Assembly (NCBI GenBank): GCA_965263035.1
Contig: OZ253580.1
Location: 4,320,001 to 4,384,000 of the forward strand
Length of the DNA: 64,000 nucleotides
From: Acidobacteriota bacterium
Lineage (GTDB): Bacteria; Acidobacteriota; UBA6911; RPQK01; JAJDTT01
Reading direction: 5' to 3'
The notes beneath the pieces are model-generated. The model saw only the letters and a program-made list of their open reading frames with translations, did not search any database and was not told where the DNA came from. The first letter of the stretch is position 1. Every line of letters begins with the position of its first letter. Below, piece by piece: positions 3,888 to 57,173 of the stretch. A program made the position numbers and the translations under genes.

Positions 3888-3995
3888 CTGGAGGGGCGAC
3901 TTCCAGTCGCCCATTCCTTTCTTGGCCCACCGTTACTCTGGAGTTCGGCGACTGGAAATCGCCGCTCCTGTTCGGCGGTTGGAAACCGCCGCTCC
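3888..3995. repeat. REP/REPIN-like cluster of GGAG-footed hairpins
   Basis: CTGGAG-GGGCGACttccaGTCGCCC followed by two inverted units TTCGGCGACTGGAAATCGCCGCTCC and TTCGGCGGTTGGAAACCGCCGCTCC; same architecture at 13295-13394. Confidence 0.7.
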
Positions 3996-11778: not shown

Positions 11779-13272
11779 ATGATCAGGAACACCTCGCAGA
11801 TGGGCCGCTCCAGCCACGGTTCCCACATTCTCGCGCTGCTTCTGCTGGGAATCGGCTCCGGTTGCGGGACTCTTCCCGAGCCTCCGTCCGCAACGGAGCC
11901 GCTGGTGCTGAACCGGCAGCAGGAGTTGCTGCTCGACGACGACCGGCTGGTCCGGAGCCGGCAGGGCCTGGAGTTGGTCCAGGCTCGGCTTGAAAAGCAT
12001 CCGGCCAATCCGCTCCTGGTCATCGACCGTCCCTGGGAGCGTCAGGGGATCCTCAATTACGTGGCCATCCTGCATGACGAGGAGGAGGGGCTCTACCGGA
12101 TGTGGTACCAGATCCTGGGCCGGACCGAGGAGGGGGTCAACCGCAGCCATTGCCTCTATGCCCAGTCCTCGGACGGAGTCCGGTGGGAAAAACCGGAGCT
12201 GGGCCTGGTGGACTTCCAGGGTTCGAAGGACAACAACATCCTGTTCCTGGATCCCAACGAGCGGCCGCGGGGAACGCCCGTCTACTGGGTGGTGAAGGAC
12301 TACGCCGAGGCGGACGCCGGCCGGCGGTACAAGATGATGCTCAATCGCTGGGATTTTCGGGGCCGGGGCGTGGGAATCGGCTATTCCGCCGACGGAATCC
12401 ACTGGGAATTCACGCCCTACGTCAACCGGTTGGGCGGGTTCGACACCCACAACCTCTTCTTCTGGGACGACCGGATCGGCCTCTACACCGGGTATTTTCG
12501 AACCCACGTCCGGGGTAAGCGGTCCATCGGACGGGCCACGAGCCCGGACGCCTTCCACTGGTCGGCGCCGGTCACGGTCCACACGCTCGACGAACGGGAT
12601 CCTCCGGAATGGCAGATCTATGGTCCCGGCATCTTCAAATACAGCCGGGCCCGGGACGTCTACGTCATGTACGGGGAGGGCTACGACTCGGAGGACGAGA
12701 TCTTCCGGGGACAGTTGGGCCTGAGCCGGGACGGAATCCACTGGAAGCGGTTCCGCGGCGGATACTTTGCCGACACCAGCACGGGAGCATGGGATGCCGG
12801 CTCGGTTCGGCCGATCCCCGCGGAGGCCGTGGTCGACGGCCGGATGGCCGTTTTCTACGCGGCCAGCGACCACTCCCTGCACGACTGGGAGGGGACGAGG
12901 GGAGTGGGGCTGGCGCTGTATCAGCAGGGGGCGTTCGCCGGTTGGAGGGCAGGGATCGAGGGGACATTGACCACCCGGCTCCTCCTGGCCAAGGACCGGG
13001 AGCCGGGACTGCTGCTGAACGCGGAAGCAGAAGGCGGCGAGATCCGGGCCGAGCTTCTGGACGCCCAGGGCCGGCCTATCCCGGGTTACTCACGCGAGAA
13101 CTGCCGGCCATTGACCGGCAACGGCCATCAACAGGAGGTGGTCTGGGAGGGGCGAGAGAACCTGACGCCGGTGGTGGCCCAGGGGGCCTTCAGCATCCGC
13201 CTGCATCTGAAGCAGGCCACGATCTATGGATTCCGCGTGATTCCTCCCCGAAGCGCCCGAGCGCTGTTTTGA
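11779..13272 (+). CDS. Putative lipoprotein, beta-propeller glycoside hydrolase-like (GH32/GH43-like)
   Basis: Lipobox-like GSGC; YRMWY, SSDGVRWEKP, SADGIHW, SRDGIHW Asp-box-like repeats; C-terminal GTLTT..LNA domain. Confidence 0.65.
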   Translation: MIRNTSQMGRSSHGSHILALLLLGIGSGCGTLPEPPSATEPLVLNRQQELLLDDDRLVRSRQGLELVQARLEKHPANPLLVIDRPWERQGILNYVAILHDEEEGLYRMWYQILGRTEEGVNRSHCLYAQSSDGVRWEKPELGLVDFQGSKDNNILFLDPNERPRGTPVYWVVKDYAEADAGRRYKMMLNRWDFRGRGVGIGYSADGIHWEFTPYVNRLGGFDTHNLFFWDDRIGLYTGYFRTHVRGKRSIGRATSPDAFHWSAPVTVHTLDERDPPEWQIYGPGIFKYSRARDVYVMYGEGYDSEDEIFRGQLGLSRDGIHWKRFRGGYFADTSTGAWDAGSVRPIPAEAVVDGRMAVFYAASDHSLHDWEGTRGVGLALYQQGAFAGWRAGIEGTLTTRLLLAKDREPGLLLNAEAEGGEIRAELLDAQGRPIPGYSRENCRPLTGNGHQQEVVWEGRENLTPVVAQGAFSIRLHLKQATIYGFRVIPPRSARALF

Positions 13273-13294
13273 GGAGCGGCGACAGGAGGGGGGA

Positions 13295-13394
13295 CTGGAG
13301 GGGCGGCTTTCTTGCCGCCCACTGGGACAGGCGACTTTCTTGTCGCCTGCTCTTTGCCGTTACTGAAGATTCGGCGGCAAGAAAACCGCCGCTC
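13295..13394. repeat. REP/REPIN-like hairpin cluster, the group II intron target
   Basis: GGAG-GGGCGGCtttcttGCCGCCC, CAGGCGACtttcttGTCGCCTG and TTCGGCGGcaagaaaaCCGCCGCTC; homologous to 3888-3995. Confidence 0.7.
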
Positions 13395-14024
13395 GTGCGC
13401 CCGACATGGGCTGTATCTAAGGGATGAAAGATCCCAAGGGAGGTGATGGGACCAACCCTAGCCGAACCGCAAGGCGTAGCCGCGAGGTGAAGCTGAAGGA
13501 AGCGGAAGGCAAACCCACGACCGCAGGAACACGAACCGGCAGCGAGGCCGGGTGCGGGCGGTGAGCTGGCGAGCAACAGCGAAACCCGAACCCCATCCAG
13601 ACGTACCAGGTAGAGCCGGGCGGCCCGGGGGGAAAGATGCAGCACCTTACTCGGGGAGATCTCAAGGGTGAGAGCCTTTGAGAAGTCAGCAGAGGTCATA
13701 GTAGCGAAGAAGCCGGATAATGCCGGTGGAGCGAAGGACCGAAGGAGTCGGACGGGCCCTATGGTGGACTCGTCAGCGGGATCGCAACTACCTCCGGAAA
13801 CGGGGCGGGGGGAGGCCCCTCGGACCCGGCACGGAAGGCCCAAGGGTGGAACCCGTCAAGCCGGAAGGGCGGAGATCAAGTCCCAGCGGCGGCGAAAACC
13901 GGAAAGAAAGGCCCTTTACGAGGCTCGAAAGAGCCTCGAGTGACTCCAACCGCCGGATACTGAAAACGGTACGTCCGGTGGTGTGGGAGGGTGCAGGGGC
14001 GCAATCCCCTGCACTCGACCCGAT
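13395..14024 (+). mobile_element. ORF-less class IIC group II intron (ribozyme)
   Basis: 5' GTGCGCCCGACATGG; AAGTCAGCAGAGGTCATAGTA and GAAGGACCGAA (D2/D3); D4 closed by GGAGTC/GACTCC (13744-13947) with no RT ORF; short D5 AACCGCCGGATAC...GTACGTCCGGTGGT with CGC triad; D6 with bulged A ending CCCGAT. Confidence 0.92.
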
Positions 14025-14054
14025 CATGCCATCGCTTTGCGAGGGGAGACCTCC

Positions 14055-15332
14055 TCACTCGACGATGGTTCCGACCACCACCTCGTCGGTGACGTTGTGG
14101 GGGCTGATGACCTCCCCGCCGCAGAGGTACAGCTTCTTTCCGACCAGGCTCAATTCCGCTGCCAGCCGGTAGACCCCCTTCGAGAGGTCGATGCCGGTGG
14201 CCTCCCGAATCTGCTGCTCCCGCTCGGGGTGGACCGGAAAGGGAAGGATTTTGGAGGGAAGGGTCCGGTAGGTTTTCTCCACCGTGTCGAAGACCAGGAC
14301 GTCGAAGTTGGGGGAACGCACCTCGGGGATCCGGTCCTTGTAACGATAGGGATGGTCCACCGGATAGTCCTTGATGCCGCCGGCCATGATGATGAACCGG
14401 TCCCGGTAGGCGACGGCTTCCATTCCGTGAACCGGAAAGGGCAGGTCCGGGAGTCTCCGCCAGCGCAAGGTCTTGAGATTGAGGACGTAGCCGTCCCCGC
14501 AATGGCGCAGATGACCCTCGAATCGTCCGTTCCTGGATTCGGCGTAGTTGACGTAGTCCCCGCCGAAGACGTAGATGTCGTCACCGACGGCGGTCGCGGC
14601 CGGAGACTCGCGGCCCATCCCGGGAAGTGGAGGTAGATCCCGCCATCCTGCGTCCGGTGCAGCCGTGTCGAAGGCTTCCACCGAGTTTACGTAGGCTCCG
14701 GGATGGTCGCCCATGAAGGGTTGGGCGCCGAACGTGGCCTGTCCACCGACCACCACGATGGTCGTGCCGCTGACGGCGGCGCCGGGCAGGAAACGGCCGA
14801 CTCGGAGGGACGGAAGTTCCTCCCACTGCTTCCGGTCCCCGGTTCCGGAAAGTCGGAACAATCGATTGCTGGTGTTGTCGTTCTGCTCTTCAGGCCAGAT
14901 CACCCAACCGGTAAAGACGTAAAAGTCCTCCCCCACCGTCGCGCCCTGAGGCCACTTGATGCCCACCGGCAACTCGGGCAACAAACCGTACTCCAAGGTC
15001 CGGGTGTCCAGGACCCAGCCCGAGACGTGCCTTCCCCGATCCCGGAGCTGCCACCCCTTGCCCGTGGAGCGCTGGCTCGACGGTTCCCAGCCGGGAAAGC
15101 CTGGCGACCCTGCAGCCAGGATCAGTTCCCCGATGGTCGCCTGGGCCTGTCCCTTGGTGGGCCAAGGCATGGGTGGTCCCATTTCCCAGGCGATGTCGCG
15201 GATCTCCGGCACCTGATCACCGCCTTCACCGCAGCCCGGGCAGAGGGCCAGCAACAGCAGAGGCAGGGTCAGGATCGCTCGGTGGCTACGGTCGGCTCCC
15301 GGTAGCCGTTCGGGGTGGTCCATGGAGCTCAT
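14055..15332 (-). CDS. Kelch-repeat beta-propeller lipoprotein
   Basis: YVFGG, VVVGG, IMAGG and W..LPDLP Kelch repeats; hydrophobic signal with CPGC; ATGA overlap with upstream paralog. Confidence 0.8.
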   Translation of the reverse strand: MSSMDHPERLPGADRSHRAILTLPLLLLALCPGCGEGGDQVPEIRDIAWEMGPPMPWPTKGQAQATIGELILAAGSPGFPGWEPSSQRSTGKGWQLRDRGRHVSGWVLDTRTLEYGLLPELPVGIKWPQGATVGEDFYVFTGWVIWPEEQNDNTSNRLFRLSGTGDRKQWEELPSLRVGRFLPGAAVSGTTIVVVGGQATFGAQPFMGDHPGAYVNSVEAFDTAAPDAGWRDLPPLPGMGRESPAATAVGDDIYVFGGDYVNYAESRNGRFEGHLRHCGDGYVLNLKTLRWRRLPDLPFPVHGMEAVAYRDRFIIMAGGIKDYPVDHPYRYKDRIPEVRSPNFDVLVFDTVEKTYRTLPSKILPFPVHPEREQQIREATGIDLSKGVYRLAAELSLVGKKLYLCGGEVISPHNVTDEVVVGTIVE

Positions 15333-16570
15333 TCCTCGATGATGGTCCCCACCAGGACCTCGTCGGTGACGTTGGCCGGGCTGATCACTTCGCCTCCGGC
15401 CAGGTATAACTTGCCCCGCACCAGGCTCAACTCCGCGGCCAGGCGGTAGACTCCCCGGGAGAAATCGATCCAGTCGACGTCCAGAGCCTTGTGCCTCATC
15501 TCGGGCGGGGGCCGGTAGGGAGGAATCCTCGTGGGCAGGATCCGATAGGCCTCCTCCTCGGCGTCGAAGACCAGCACCTCGAAGTTGGGAGCGGGCCGGT
15601 CGGGGATCCGATCCGCGTAAGCGTAGGGATGGTCCACGGGGTAGTCTCTCATCCCCCCGGCGATGATGACGTATCGGTCCCGGTGCACGGCCGCTTCCCA
15701 GCCGCCGGCGGGAAAGGGCAGGTCGGGAAGCCGCCGCCAGCGCAGGGAGCGAAGGTCCAGCACGTACGCGTCGCCGCCATGCCGGCGATGCGGGTGGTAA
15801 TCGCCGCCTGCTTCGGCGTAGTTGACGTAGAAGCCTCCGAACACGTACACCTTCTCGCCGATGGCGACTGCGGCCATGGACTCGCGGCTGAAGCCGGGTA
15901 TGGGAGGAAGCTCCCTCCACCTGCCGGAGGGGTCGGCCGTATCGAAGATCTCCACCGAGTTGATGTAGACGCCCGGATGGTCTCCGGTGAAAGGGGACGC
16001 TCCGTAGGAGGCTTGGCCGCCCAGGACGACGATCGAAGTTCCTGAGGACACCGCTGCCGCCAGGAAGCGTCCGATGATCAGGGAGGGCATCTCCTGCCAC
16101 CGCCATTCTCCCGACCTGCGGGAGAGCCGCAACACGCGATTTGTCGTGATGTCCAGCCGGTCCTGAGGCCAGCGAACGGTTCCCGTCAGCAGGTAGAAAT
16201 CGTTGCCCACCGACACGCCTTGAGGCCAACTCAGACCTACCGGGGCATTAGGCAGAATCTGGTAACGGTTGGAACGGGTGTCGAAGAGCCAGACGCTGTT
16301 GTGCCTGCCGCGTTCCCGGGTGTTCTCTCTGGGGTTCCATCCTGGATAGCCCGGCGCCCCCGCCGCCACGATCTTGTCGCCCAACACGGCCTGAGCCTGT
16401 CCCTTGGTGGGCCAGGGCAACGGTTTCCCGGGGGTCCAGGTGATGTCTCGGATCCCGGCGCCGGCGGCTTGAACCGGAAACCACAAGCACACCAGCCAGA
16501 CGACGGGTCTCCAGATTCTGCCCATCGGATGAAGAGCGTCGTGCAACCGTCCCTTCACCCGACCAACCAT
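15329..16570 (-). CDS. Kelch-repeat beta-propeller protein (paralog of downstream gene)
   Basis: Shares PWPTKGQAQA, GDHPG.Y.NSVE and GVYRLAAELSLV motifs; start uncertain (16570 or 16525). Confidence 0.78.
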   Translation of the reverse strand: MVGRVKGRLHDALHPMGRIWRPVVWLVCLWFPVQAAGAGIRDITWTPGKPLPWPTKGQAQAVLGDKIVAAGAPGYPGWNPRENTRERGRHNSVWLFDTRSNRYQILPNAPVGLSWPQGVSVGNDFYLLTGTVRWPQDRLDITTNRVLRLSRRSGEWRWQEMPSLIIGRFLAAAVSSGTSIVVLGGQASYGASPFTGDHPGVYINSVEIFDTADPSGRWRELPPIPGFSRESMAAVAIGEKVYVFGGFYVNYAEAGGDYHPHRRHGGDAYVLDLRSLRWRRLPDLPFPAGGWEAAVHRDRYVIIAGGMRDYPVDHPYAYADRIPDRPAPNFEVLVFDAEEEAYRILPTRIPPYRPPPEMRHKALDVDWIDFSRGVYRLAAELSLVRGKLYLAGGEVISPANVTDEVLVGTIIEE

Positions 16571-55185: not shown

Positions 55186-57173
55186 GAGTCTGCCTTTCTC
55201 AATCGTGGCCCATCGGAAGCCGGATCTTCACGATCCTGACCCGATGACCACCACTCATTGGCCGAGATCCTGATGGCTTCAATATTATCGACGATGGGAA
55301 AGCTTGGCAAGCTGCGGGTGAAGAGGGATCCGTAGCGCCGAGTGCGAAGGCGGCTGTCGAACACCCCCAGAATTCCGCGGTCTTTCCGGGAGCGGATCAG
55401 ACGTCCCAACCCCTGCCGCAAGGCGATGGTGGCCGCCGGAACCGAGTAGCGGAGAAACGAGTTCTCTCCCTGTTCCTCCAGCCGGTTGAGCCGAGCGGCC
55501 ACCACCGGTTCGGTGGGGACCTGGAAGGGGAGTTTGTCGATCAAGACCGCCCTGAGGGCGTCTCCCGGCACGTCTACTCCCTGCCAGAAGCTGGAGGTGG
55601 CGCAGAGCACCGCGTGAGGCGTCTGCCGGAACTCGTGGAGCAGCTGCGACTGGGGACGGTCCCCCTGGCGGAGCAGGGGATAGGGCAGGCGTTCAATCAT
55701 CAGGTCGTGGACCCGGTTGAGCTGCAGATAGCTGGTGAAGAGCAGGAACGCGTGCCCCTGGGTCAGCTCGAGGATTTCCTCCAGCTGCCGGACCAGTTGG
55801 ATCAGGTATCCGGGCGAGCCCGGCTCCGGGAAGCGCTTGGGAATGTAGAGGAGCGACTGTTTCGCATAGTCGAACTCGCCGGCGGTGACCATCTGACGAG
55901 CCTCGCCCAGGCCCAGGCGGGTCCGAACGTAGGAGAAGTCTCCGCTGGTGGTGAGAGTTGCGGAGAGCAGTATGGCGGACGGGACCTGGGCAAAGAGCCT
56001 CTGTTCCAAGGTTGAGGCCACCTCGATCGGAGTCAGATTGAGGAATGTGCCGCGGCCCCGGCGCCGCATCCAATGGACACTCTCCCGATCTTCCAGGTCG
56101 AAGAATCGTTCCAGGTGAAGGGCCAGCGATTCCACCCGGCGCAGCAGCATGTCCCGTTCCTGGTGGGACGGGTCCCGCAGACTCAACTTGCCGTGAAGAT
56201 TCGACAAGGTCCTTGCCAACTGGCGGTAGGCGTCGAGGGCGGGAACACGCAAGTCGGCCGGCGTGCCGTCGGCTCGTCTCGCCGAATCGAGAGCCCATGT
56301 TCCTTCGGCGGCCGGCAGGGCGGAAAACAACATCTCGGCACGGGACTCGAGGTCGCGAACGGCCCGCATCGAATCGGTGTCGGGATAGGATGCGGCCAGA
56401 TCCCGAGCCAGCTCCTCCACCTGATAGCTGCTGATTCGTTTCCCCAGGTGGGTGCAGGCGATCTCCTCGACTGCGTGAGCTTCATCCAGGATCAGCGTGG
56501 AGAAATCGGGGAGGATGCTCCCCAGCTCATCGACTTCCAGGGCCAGATGAGCGAAGAAGAGGGCATGGTTGACGATGATGACGTCTGCTTCCAGAGCCTT
56601 TTGGCGCATGCGCGTGATGAAGCAGCGATCGAAGTGGGAGCATTTCTGACCCGTGCAGCTCTCGCTCCGGGCATCCAGTTCTCTCCAGAGGGGATCCGAA
56701 TCGGACATCCATTCCAATTCGGAACGGTCGCCGGTTTCGGTCTCGAGAGCCCACTCCGACAGGGCCTGCCGAGACTGGAGCCACTCTTGGGACAGGGAGA
56801 GCGATCTGGCATGGTGCTCCAGCTTCCGAAGACAGAGATAGTTCTGGCGCCCCTTCATGTAGGTCACCTTCATGTCGGGGAAGAGGTGCCGCCGAATGAA
56901 AGGGACGTCCTTCAGGTAGAGCTGTTCTTGAAGATTGCGTGTTGCCGTGGAGATGATGGTCTTGCGGCGGCTGGCGATGGCCGGAACCAGATAGGCCAGG
57001 GTCTTGCCGGTTCCGGTGCCGGCTTCGGCACAGAGGTGATGGCCTTGCTGAATCGCTTCCAGAACCGAGAGGGACAATTCCAGTTGCGAAGGCCGGTATT
57101 CGTAACCCGGGAGTTCTCCGGCCAGCAGTCCTCCCGGGGAGAAGACCTCCTGAAGTGTGAATTCGGACGCCAT
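55182..57173 (-). CDS. dinG: ATP-dependent DNA helicase, DinG/YoaA family
   Basis: EAGTGTGKT, KGRQNYLC, DEAH, SATL, FWQGVD, QGLGRLIR. Confidence 0.9.
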   Translation of the reverse strand: MASEFTLQEVFSPGGLLAGELPGYEYRPSQLELSLSVLEAIQQGHHLCAEAGTGTGKTLAYLVPAIASRRKTIISTATRNLQEQLYLKDVPFIRRHLFPDMKVTYMKGRQNYLCLRKLEHHARSLSLSQEWLQSRQALSEWALETETGDRSELEWMSDSDPLWRELDARSESCTGQKCSHFDRCFITRMRQKALEADVIIVNHALFFAHLALEVDELGSILPDFSTLILDEAHAVEEIACTHLGKRISSYQVEELARDLAASYPDTDSMRAVRDLESRAEMLFSALPAAEGTWALDSARRADGTPADLRVPALDAYRQLARTLSNLHGKLSLRDPSHQERDMLLRRVESLALHLERFFDLEDRESVHWMRRRGRGTFLNLTPIEVASTLEQRLFAQVPSAILLSATLTTSGDFSYVRTRLGLGEARQMVTAGEFDYAKQSLLYIPKRFPEPGSPGYLIQLVRQLEEILELTQGHAFLLFTSYLQLNRVHDLMIERLPYPLLRQGDRPQSQLLHEFRQTPHAVLCATSSFWQGVDVPGDALRAVLIDKLPFQVPTEPVVAARLNRLEEQGENSFLRYSVPAATIALRQGLGRLIRSRKDRGILGVFDSRLRTRRYGSLFTRSLPSFPIVDNIEAIRISANEWWSSGQDREDPASDGPRLRKADS

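Follow-up and report, generated by a model that had tools for sequence, protein, structure and literature searches.

The 64,000-nt stretch of an Acidobacteriota chromosome analysed here (assembly GCA_965263035.1, contig OZ253580.1, positions 4,320,001 to 4,384,000; hereafter the window) contains a 630-nt group IIC intron that lacks an open reading frame (ORF) and lies directly behind a hairpin of a repetitive extragenic palindromic (REP)-like repeat family. The anatomy of this intron, the copy numbers of its family, the rule by which its targets are chosen, the pairing of its exon-binding site 1 (EBS1), the strand bias of its insertions and an intact cognate reverse transcriptase (RT) are all observed in the genome. 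The explanation regarded as highly probable is retrohoming in trans, in which the ORF-less intron would be mobilised by the RT of a full-length relative into REP hairpins followed by GCTC↓C (the arrow marks the insertion point) on the template of the lagging strand. Coordinates between 12900 and 16229 and those of the two empty REP units discussed below refer to the window, and all others to the genome.

The termini of the intron, GUGCG at 13395 and ...GAU at 14024, fit the boundaries expected of such an element (5' GUGYG and 3' AY), and the same boundaries recur in all copies of the family except for a degenerate copy at 2489581, which begins with GUACG. When the entire window was scanned at the Rfam gathering thresholds, only two matches were returned, both inside the intron and covering the core of domain 1 (D1) and domains 2 and 3 (D2-D3; Table 1). 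A subsequent permissive scan aligned the domain 5 and 6 (D5/D6) model RF00029 (Intron_gpII) over its full length (model 1-77 of 77) to 13948-14024, at 39.0 bits, with the match stopping exactly at the 3' splice site. The triad of D5 is CGC, and it is the presence of CGC instead of AGC in this position, together with a 2-nt bulge, that marks class IIC. A separate covariance model, trained on the D5/D6 of the window copy and of eight close relatives, matched 81 times in 80 loci that encode relatives of the cognate RT (46-72% identity, from a one-genome-per-species collection). The helices of these matches were 97.1% paired, and both partners had changed in 21 of the 27 pairs, values reached by none of 500 column shuffles, and the triad pairs were likewise kept (CG in 68/68 and GU in 66/68). 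The minimum-free-energy (MFE) fold of the full RNA recovers the closing stem of D1, the EBS1 hairpin, domain 4 (D4), D5 and D6 (z = -3.08, 20 shuffles). Thus, the intron sketched in the preliminary description of this DNA, with its GTGCG start, length of 630 nt, IIC-type domains and bulged adenosine in D6, is borne out by sequence and Rfam alike, and its D1 fold, recovered both by the RF02001 match and by the MFE fold, is unbroken.

The genome of this organism (G000), a single contig of 6.198 Mb with 62% G+C, was searched with the intron by BLASTN. The window copy proved far from unique, with 24 copies found in all: 22 are ORF-less and two, each 1848 nt in length, contain an ORF. Nineteen of the ORF-less copies are full length and 94.5-100% identical to the window copy, the lowest value belonging to the degenerate copy, and five of them, the window's among them, are 100% identical to each other. 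The remaining three are split by insertions (3922900-3925900, 3067300-3070300 and 5180100-5186000); judged by eye, the first insert carries an IS3-like integrase-type transposase ORF of 342 aa, and the third, of approximately 4.7 kb, carries IS21-like ORFs together with a serine-recombinase-like ORF of 694 aa. Small intron fragments are also found at 56971 and 1998599. The 630-nt query aligns from end to end with each of the 19 full-length ORF-less copies, including a deletion scar with stem CGAGGCUC/GAGCCUCG capped by GAAA, which occupies the position of the RT ORF in the full-length copies. As 19 copies share the same length and the same scar, they are most simply explained by one deletion and subsequent spread. 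The sequences accordingly indicate that the ORF-less family of this genome arose through a single deletion of the RT ORF from D4 of a co-resident autonomous intron. At least part of its spread is recent.

The two 1848-nt copies carry, within D4, a 1.2-kb segment encoding a 409-aa protein, the open frame of which is identical in both. This protein matches RVT_1 (132.4 bits) and GIIM (30.7 bits) in Pfam, and no nuclease or endonuclease domain was detected in it by the Pfam scan. Under NCBIfam it is recognised as a group II intron RT/maturase (TIGR04416, 363.3 bits, cut-off 300), and its nearest relatives of solved structure are the GsI-IIC RT (448.9 bits) and 7uim (342.8 bits), both of class IIC, with LtrA a distant third at 123.6 bits in this comparison. 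By these matches it is a class-C RT/maturase with an intact frame, and a related RT, such as the preliminary description had supposed to exist elsewhere in the genome, is therefore present in two copies.

The target rule is simple and almost without variation. The intron had been said to follow directly upon the hairpin GGCGG-caagaaaa-CCGCC-GCTC, as it does at 13373-13394, and ...CGCCGCTC↓C is indeed the end of both empty units, 3944-3968 and 3971-3995. Among 25 5' junctions in the genome, one, belonging to a diverged 51-nt fragment, was excluded, and all of the remaining 24 consist of a hairpin followed by GCTC. Twenty of these hairpins are of the GGCGRC-AAGAAA-GYCGCC type or near variants of it, three are GGGG-type members of the same family and one is an unrelated 7-bp hairpin; hence, the REP association seen in the window extends to 23 of the 24 junctions. 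As one copy follows a non-REP hairpin with GCTC↓C, the rule comprises a structure plus five bases rather than the REP sequence itself. A strict REP motif occurs 190 times in the genome, and 98 of these bear a GCTC tail, 18 of them occupied and 80 with an empty GCTC↓C. A looser search for perfect stems gives 330 copies in 221 clusters, a lower bound because imperfect stems, including that of the window's own target, are missed. Within this latter set, 17 of 161 GCTC-tailed REPs are occupied, whereas all 85 with a CCTC tail are empty (Fisher p = 0.0009), and as exact strings GCTC plus the intron start is found 23 times and CCTC plus the intron start not once in the genome.

The repeats are termed REP-like here on account of their number and arrangement. 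Adjacent pairs within 200 nt are oriented (-,+) in 50 cases, (+,+) in 35, (-,-) in 24 and (+,-) in none, with 43 pairs spaced exactly 10 nt apart, and at the focal locus and its orthologues the copies are extragenic. The earlier label of REP is supported by this abundance and doublet geometry, and only in part by a link to RAYT (REP-associated tyrosine transposase) genes. Two RAYT-like Y1 transposase genes are encoded in the genome, at 2482813-2483487 (minus strand, 224 aa) and 3478081-3478464 (plus strand, 127 aa, apparently truncated), and they reach 73.9 and 75.6 bits when compared with the RAYT model NF047646. The 127-aa gene has GGGG-type REP variants on both sides, and the 224-aa gene is without a REP within 600 nt. 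Since both genes fall below the model cut-off of 80, "REP-like" is justified and mobilisation of the repeats by RAYT is not established. The hairpins were also considered as intrinsic terminators, a role that was rejected: the REP hairpins are not followed by a T-run, and terminator prediction over 12900-14400 marked none of those within it.

Four bases in D1 are complementary to the tail behind which the intron sits. The EBS1 hairpin, GCUG-GCGAGCAA-CAGC, appears in the Rfam alignment and the MFE fold alike, and presents GAGC in its loop. To place this pairing among relatives, the 5' 345 nt of the intron were used in an nhmmer search that aligned 75 of the 80 related loci at E <= 1, with the 71 matches at E <= 1e-5 retained. 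Rows were kept where the alignment started at model position 1-3 and enough upstream sequence was present, and duplicates with the same exon and EBS were removed, leaving 39 junctions including the window's own, one of which was dropped for gaps. Over the resulting 38 junctions, EBS1 forms on average 3.37 of four possible pairs with exon positions -4 to -1 (four pairs in 18 junctions, three in 16 and two in four), compared to a mean of 2.00 (sd 0.14, maximum 2.45) in 2000 random re-pairings of EBS and exon. The paired combinations include GCCA/UGGC, GCUA/UAGC, UGUU/AACA, CAUU/AAUG, ACGU/ACGU and UCCU/AGGA, and the bases upstream of intron-binding site 1 (IBS1) form the 3' arm of the target hairpin. 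The assignment of EBS1 to GAGC at 13571-13574 is thus upheld by covariation and, as described below, by a switch from GAGC/GCTC to GAGG/CCTC among congeners.

The assignment of EBS3 fared differently. The preliminary description had suggested that G13581 pairs with the first base of the 3' exon, C14025, and this was examined using 3' exon bases read from the covariance-model-defined 3' ends of relatives. In the column of G13581, 43 of 66 relatives pair, close to the 40.9 averaged over shuffles (p = 0.19, with mutual information of 0.06), and this position was dropped for want of a covariation signal. In the column of G13613, pairing is possible in 55 of 65 relatives; shuffles averaged 39.1, and 0 of 5000 gave a value as high. 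Both positions are G, so that pairing with C14025 is possible for either, and from the covariation EBS3 is probably G13613 rather than G13581. The EBS3 of IIB and IIC introns sits in a "coordination loop" between D1 helices.

The same specificity can be followed across the genus. Among eight same-genus genomes searched, five contain the intron family, and no copy was detected in the remaining three, whose completeness is 94-97%. G003 possesses five ORF-containing copies and one ORF-less copy, all six with EBS1 GAGG and all six behind a 5' exon ending in CCTC; G001 and G008 each have a single ORF-less copy with the same GAGG and CCTC combination. G004 has two copies with EBS1 GAGC, both behind GCTC. 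Each of these copies is preceded by a hairpin, which in nearly every case belongs to the REP-like family, and on the evidence of the alignments one base of EBS1 and one base of the target change together between species. The REP-like repeats themselves are found in all five congeners searched for them, with 8-61 strict GCTCC-tailed copies each. The strict GCTCC and CCTCC tails number 13 and 0, 61 and 28, 8 and 1, 24 and 1, and 19 and 7, respectively, and a dependence of the EBS1 allele on the commonest tail was consequently discarded, as GCTCC is in the majority in all five, including the GAGG-bearing G001, G003 and G008. In G000, the 51-nt fragment at 56917-56971 (minus strand), a diverged intron 5' end behind a CCTC-tailed REP, may be what is left of a GAGG-type relative. 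The four ORF-less copies compared in four species have four different D4 junctions, and one of them retains the first four and last few codons of the ORF; the difference in junctions implies that the ORF was probably lost more than once in the lineage.

The history of individual insertions and their orientation are consistent with movement through an RNA. Every copy starts and stops exactly at the intron boundaries, and all 3' flanks are unrelated. The intergenic site orthologous to that of the window is intron-free in 5 of 5 congeners; in G004 an empty REP with GCTC↓C at its end stands there, beside the same downstream gene. The origin of replication is located at 2.87 Mb by dnaA (2871758-2873065), dnaN (2873303-2874439) and the minimum of the cumulative GC skew (2873574), the maximum of which lies near 5.54 Mb. 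Relative to this origin, the sense strand runs in the direction of the fork in 19 of 24 introns, which places it in the lagging-strand template (binomial p = 0.007). The GCTC-tailed REPs show the same preference, with an intron at 14 of 70 co-oriented copies and at 3 of 91 anti-oriented ones (Fisher p = 0.001), and at 2-3 Mb the REPs themselves are biased to the opposite orientation from the introns. Introns that lack an endonuclease reverse-splice into single-stranded DNA at replication forks, with nascent lagging strands serving as primers, and a bias to the lagging-strand template is expected of retrohoming by this route. For bacterial class C introns, a bias to one strand has been reported previously (PMC8919778).

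Under the favoured reading, the ORF-less RNA would in most cases be transcribed as the end of a gene lying upstream, and would be bound in trans by the RT/maturase from the two full-length copies and spliced, joining ...CCGCCGCTC to the 3' exon C. The ORF-less RNA would subsequently reverse-splice into the single-stranded DNA of the lagging-strand template at forks, and then be copied to DNA. The target would be a DNA stem-loop followed by GCTC↓C, in which EBS1 GAGC reads GCTC and EBS3, probably G13613, reads the C. As the genus-wide REP-like family ends in exactly this motif, it would provide a large pool of harmless landing sites.

Several observations weigh against this account. The 5' part of D4 is approximately 23% divergent between the two forms, such that recognition of the ORF-less RNA by the RT is assumed, and the D5/D6 match to RF00029 falls 1 bit short of the gathering score, which is 40. 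Five of the 24 copies stand in the disfavoured orientation. The sequences used for covariation are related and not independent, and the shuffle statistics therefore overstate significance. Furthermore, group IIC introns in vitro are reported often only to hydrolyse at the 5' splice site (PMC4748821), and so self-splicing of the window copy cannot be assumed. Finally, no contig joining 13394 to 14025 was found among the contigs of three RNA libraries from two studies and of one run of unrecorded kind, in which rare forms would be invisible. RNA-library contigs of the intron and its REPs (13278-14033; runs X15, X16 and X18) are far deeper in summed depth than those of the flanking genes, depths that are uninterpretable from contigs for a multi-copy element. 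Similarly, the word depth of the intron is raised over its flanks in the RNA runs and in the run of unrecorded kind alike, and no conclusion was drawn from it.

Table 1. Features of the ORF-less intron and its surroundings (positions in the window)
Feature	Position	Strand	Basis or remark
Empty REP unit GGCGA-ctggaaa-TCGCC + GCTC↓C	3947..3968	+	
Empty REP unit GGCGGT-tggaa-ACCGCC + GCTC↓C	3974..3995	+	
REP hairpin GGCGGC-aagaaa-GCCGCC, tail CCTCC, empty	13302..13319	-	
REP hairpin GGCGAC-aagaaa-GTCGCC, tail TGTCC, empty	13330..13347	-	
Target REP hairpin GGCGG-caagaaaa-CCGCC	13373..13390 (arms 13373-77, 13386-90)	+	Directly 5' of intron
IBS1 = GCTC	13391..13394	+	Last four 5'-exon bases; present at all 24 family junctions
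ORF-less group IIC intron, whole element	13395..14024	+	630 nt, GTGCG start, ...CCCGAT end
Domain 1 core	13476..13643	+	RF02001 group-II-D1D4-3, 81.4 bits (gathering score 32), full-length model match
EBS1 = GAGC	13571..13574	+	Loop of hairpin 13565-13580; covariation and congener allele switch
EBS3, best candidate G	13613	+	Two-base unpaired AG junction between D1 helices (Rfam alignment); pairs with C14025
Domains 2-3	13646..13739	+	RF01998 group-II-D1D4-1, 47.2 bits (gathering score 35)
Domain 4 remnant, no ORF	13740..13949	+	Alignment to the 1848-nt ORF-containing copies
Conserved D4 block, candidate RT-binding site	13826..13872	+	Kept in ORF-less and ORF-containing copies, four species
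Deletion scar	13919..13938	+	GAAA-capped stem at the RT ORF position of full-length copies
Domain 5	13950..13981	+	CGC triad 13951-13953, G.U middle pair, 2-nt bulge CG 13972-13973
Domain 6	13985..14021	+	Bulged branch-point A at 14018, six bases before intron end
IBS3 = C	14025	+	First 3'-exon base; C at 24/25 3' junctions in the genome

Two convergent genes flank the intron: an ORF of 497 aa without a Pfam match, which ends at 13272 on the plus strand, and a gene for a Kelch-repeat protein at 14055-16229 on the minus strand.

Other explanations for the abundance of the ORF-less form are much less probable. The first is that these copies are kept mainly as protein-free hydrolytic ribozymes that cut single-stranded DNA or RNA with little or no need of an RT, in the manner of the hydrolytic endonucleolytic ribozymes (HYERs). 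ORF-less class IIC introns of approximately 0.6 kb have been reported as active ribozymes, HYER1 being 637 nt in length (PMC11754743, PMC12990946), and the ribozyme core of the present family is intact and nearly invariant among copies. Such an enzyme would have no need of D6 and its branch-point A, yet both are conserved, an intact cognate RT resides in the same genome, and the exact EBS/IBS match together with the bias to the lagging-strand template are signatures of retrohoming. Hydrolysis may belong to the activities of the ORF-less RNA as well, yet it explains the origin of no copy, and the proposal as a whole is considered improbable.

Spread at the level of DNA, whether by hitch-hiking on REPs or on paired REPs (REPINs) through a RAYT-type transposase or by recombination and duplication between REP arrays, is a still fainter prospect. 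REPs are numerous and clustered, two RAYT-like genes are present, and some introns are flanked by REPs on both sides. A further repeat is found in 25 places in the genome, a composite of approximately 95 nt with the hairpin GGGGAC-TCC-GTCCCC, for example upstream of the introns at 88695, 2447241 and 2574643, with none in the window; it has no Rfam match at E <= 0.01, and at 17 of the 25 places a REP of the strict pattern comes directly after it in the order of the sequence. Although 10 of the 25 composites carry an intron, 15 do not, on which ground the composite was rejected as part of a mobile unit, and 14 of the 24 introns are without one. Exchange between DNA arrays is also at odds with copies that end exactly at the intron boundaries next to unrelated downstream sequence, with a copy behind a non-REP hairpin and with an insertion bias that runs opposite to the orientation bias of the REPs at 2-3 Mb. 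The occupied tail is the complement of EBS1, no CCTC tail among 85 being occupied, and EBS1 and tail co-vary between species.

It is equally far-fetched that the helper is a different RT, either that of a second intron family or another. The genome holds eight matches to PF00078, including one inside a 1253-aa open frame and those of a second, unrelated group II intron family, of which three copies are intact (984033-984701 on the minus strand, and 5537681-5538349 and 5842266-5842934 on the plus strand) and one is split (5053672-5056566, plus strand). This second family has its own RT, a different ribozyme and the non-hairpin 5' exon ...ATTTCTCA↓GTGCG, and is therefore not of class IIC by target type; for the same reasons, class and target, it was uninformative when considered as an internal control for covariation. 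A group II RT as a rule serves only its own intron RNA, as is also described for Thermosynechococcus elongatus (PMC2882425), and the ORF-less copies have in common with the class-C ORF-containing copies a near-identical core and a conserved block of D4. Least credible of all is that the ORF-less copies are immobile relics, each decayed from an independent full-length insertion, for although ORF-less bacterial introns are usually seen as rare, short-lived derivatives (PMC4424553) and three copies are disrupted by insertion sequences (ISs) and one is degenerate at 94.5%, independent decay would give differing deletions, as seen between species, instead of 19 copies of one length with the same GAAA-capped scar and five copies that are 100% identical.

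Beyond retrohoming in trans, the relatedness of the two forms is a mosaic. Within G000 they share 98.6% identity in D1-D3 and 100% in D5-D6, and 76-78% in the 5' part of D4. For D1-D3, the nearest relative of the window copy is the ORF-containing copy of its own genome (98.6%, compared to 94.5% to the G001 copy), and for the 5' part of D4 it is the ORF-less copy of G001 (90.0%). This discordance between core and D4 suggests exchange between co-resident introns, which may have proceeded by recombination or template switching. The D4 block conserved in both forms (13826-13872) is, by its conservation, a candidate RT-binding site. A broader reading would place these features in a nested, three-layer parasitism. 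In this scheme, the REP-like family would be the habitat of the IIC lineage, with the EBS1 allele (GAGC or GAGG) tracking the tail (GCTC or CCTC), and ORF-less hyper-parasites would repeatedly arise and out-multiply their RT-bearing parent, their core homogenised by recombination or template switching in a shared pool of ribonucleoproteins (RNPs). This scheme is tentative, and is given slightly less than even weight.

Class IIC introns are described as targeting the stem-loops of terminators with a very short EBS1 (PMC4748821). The terminator-targeting B.h.I1, O.i.I1 and GsI-IIC resemble the present intron in their short D1, CGC triad, EBS1-IBS1 pairing of 3-4 bp and EBS3-IBS3 pairing, as well as in an RT without an endonuclease domain, insertion after a DNA stem-loop and a replication-strand bias. 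Hairpins with a T-run are the sites at most of the 80 loci of RT relatives, and most junctions among 40 relatives inspected lie directly behind a stem-loop. In contrast to these, the target here is a GC-rich repeat without a T-run, IBS1 is GCTC rather than U-rich, and the dominant form is ORF-less (22 versus 2). Another variation on the use of hairpins is found in Alicyclobacillus sp. ALC3 (NZ_CP066784.1), where class IIC introns lie back to back, the D6 hairpin of one and CGAT preceding the 5' end of the next, and the intron's own D6 seems to serve as target hairpin. Specialisation on a repeated family of recombination hairpins instead of terminators is shared with the IIC sub-lineage reported to target integron attC sites (PMC3001079). 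However, the group IIC-attC introns are directed to the attC of gene cassettes and as a rule contain an ORF, while those described here are directed to chromosomal REP-like repeats, with no integron context seen.

The closest parallel for the relationship between the two forms is TeI3 of T. elongatus, for which an ORF-less derivative, formed by a single D4 deletion of a co-resident intron, is reported to have been mobilised in trans experimentally (PMC2882425). There too the ORF-less form outnumbers its parent, at 17 to 8 by the same report (PMC2882425) compared to 22 to 2 here. TeI3 is of a CL/IIB-like class with an endonuclease domain and long EBS1 and EBS2, whereas the present intron is of class IIC. 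In addition, TeI3 reaches diverse unique sites, other introns and an IS through divergence of its EBS, whereas a single hairpin repeat family is recognised here by 4+1 bases. HYERs (Liu et al., Science 2024) are also natural ORF-less class IIC RNAs of approximately 0.6 kb (PMC11754743, PMC12990946); they are defined by hydrolytic cleavage activity, whereas the window intron is known from its sequence.

REPs have been noted before as landing sites of mobile elements, being described as specific and harmless sites for ISPpu9, ISPpu10, ISPa11 and IS1397, and in Pseudomonas putida KT2440 two of nine group II intron copies are listed as REP-associated (PMC1525189). The REP-targeting ISs are DNA transposons that rely on recognition by a transposase, in contrast to the RNA-DNA pairing plus hairpin employed here, and the association of 23 in 24 stands against two in nine. 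ORF-less introns were called rare in bacteria in a 2015 review (PMC4424553). A full-text literature search of partial coverage found no description of a REP-specialised IIC lineage beyond the P. putida entry, and a prior description is possible. ORF-less IIC introns and ORF-less introns mobilised in trans are already known; what is new is the specialisation on REPs with matched alleles of specificity.

In this genome it is the class IIC intron without a protein that has prospered, numbering approximately 22 copies compared to two of its parent. Its distribution provides a natural and internally controlled view of the bases needed for the choice of site by a IIC intron, namely a hairpin, four bases and one base, as the genome offers 246 comparable empty and occupied sites that differ by one tail base or by strand, and sister species supply a natural one-base switch of EBS1. 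The compact 630-nt ribozyme is, moreover, a HYER-type candidate for the cutting of DNA by RNA alone. These findings open the questions of how hairpins are recognised by IIC RNPs, whether REPs act as safe havens for retroelements and how non-autonomous retroelements keep pace with their helper.

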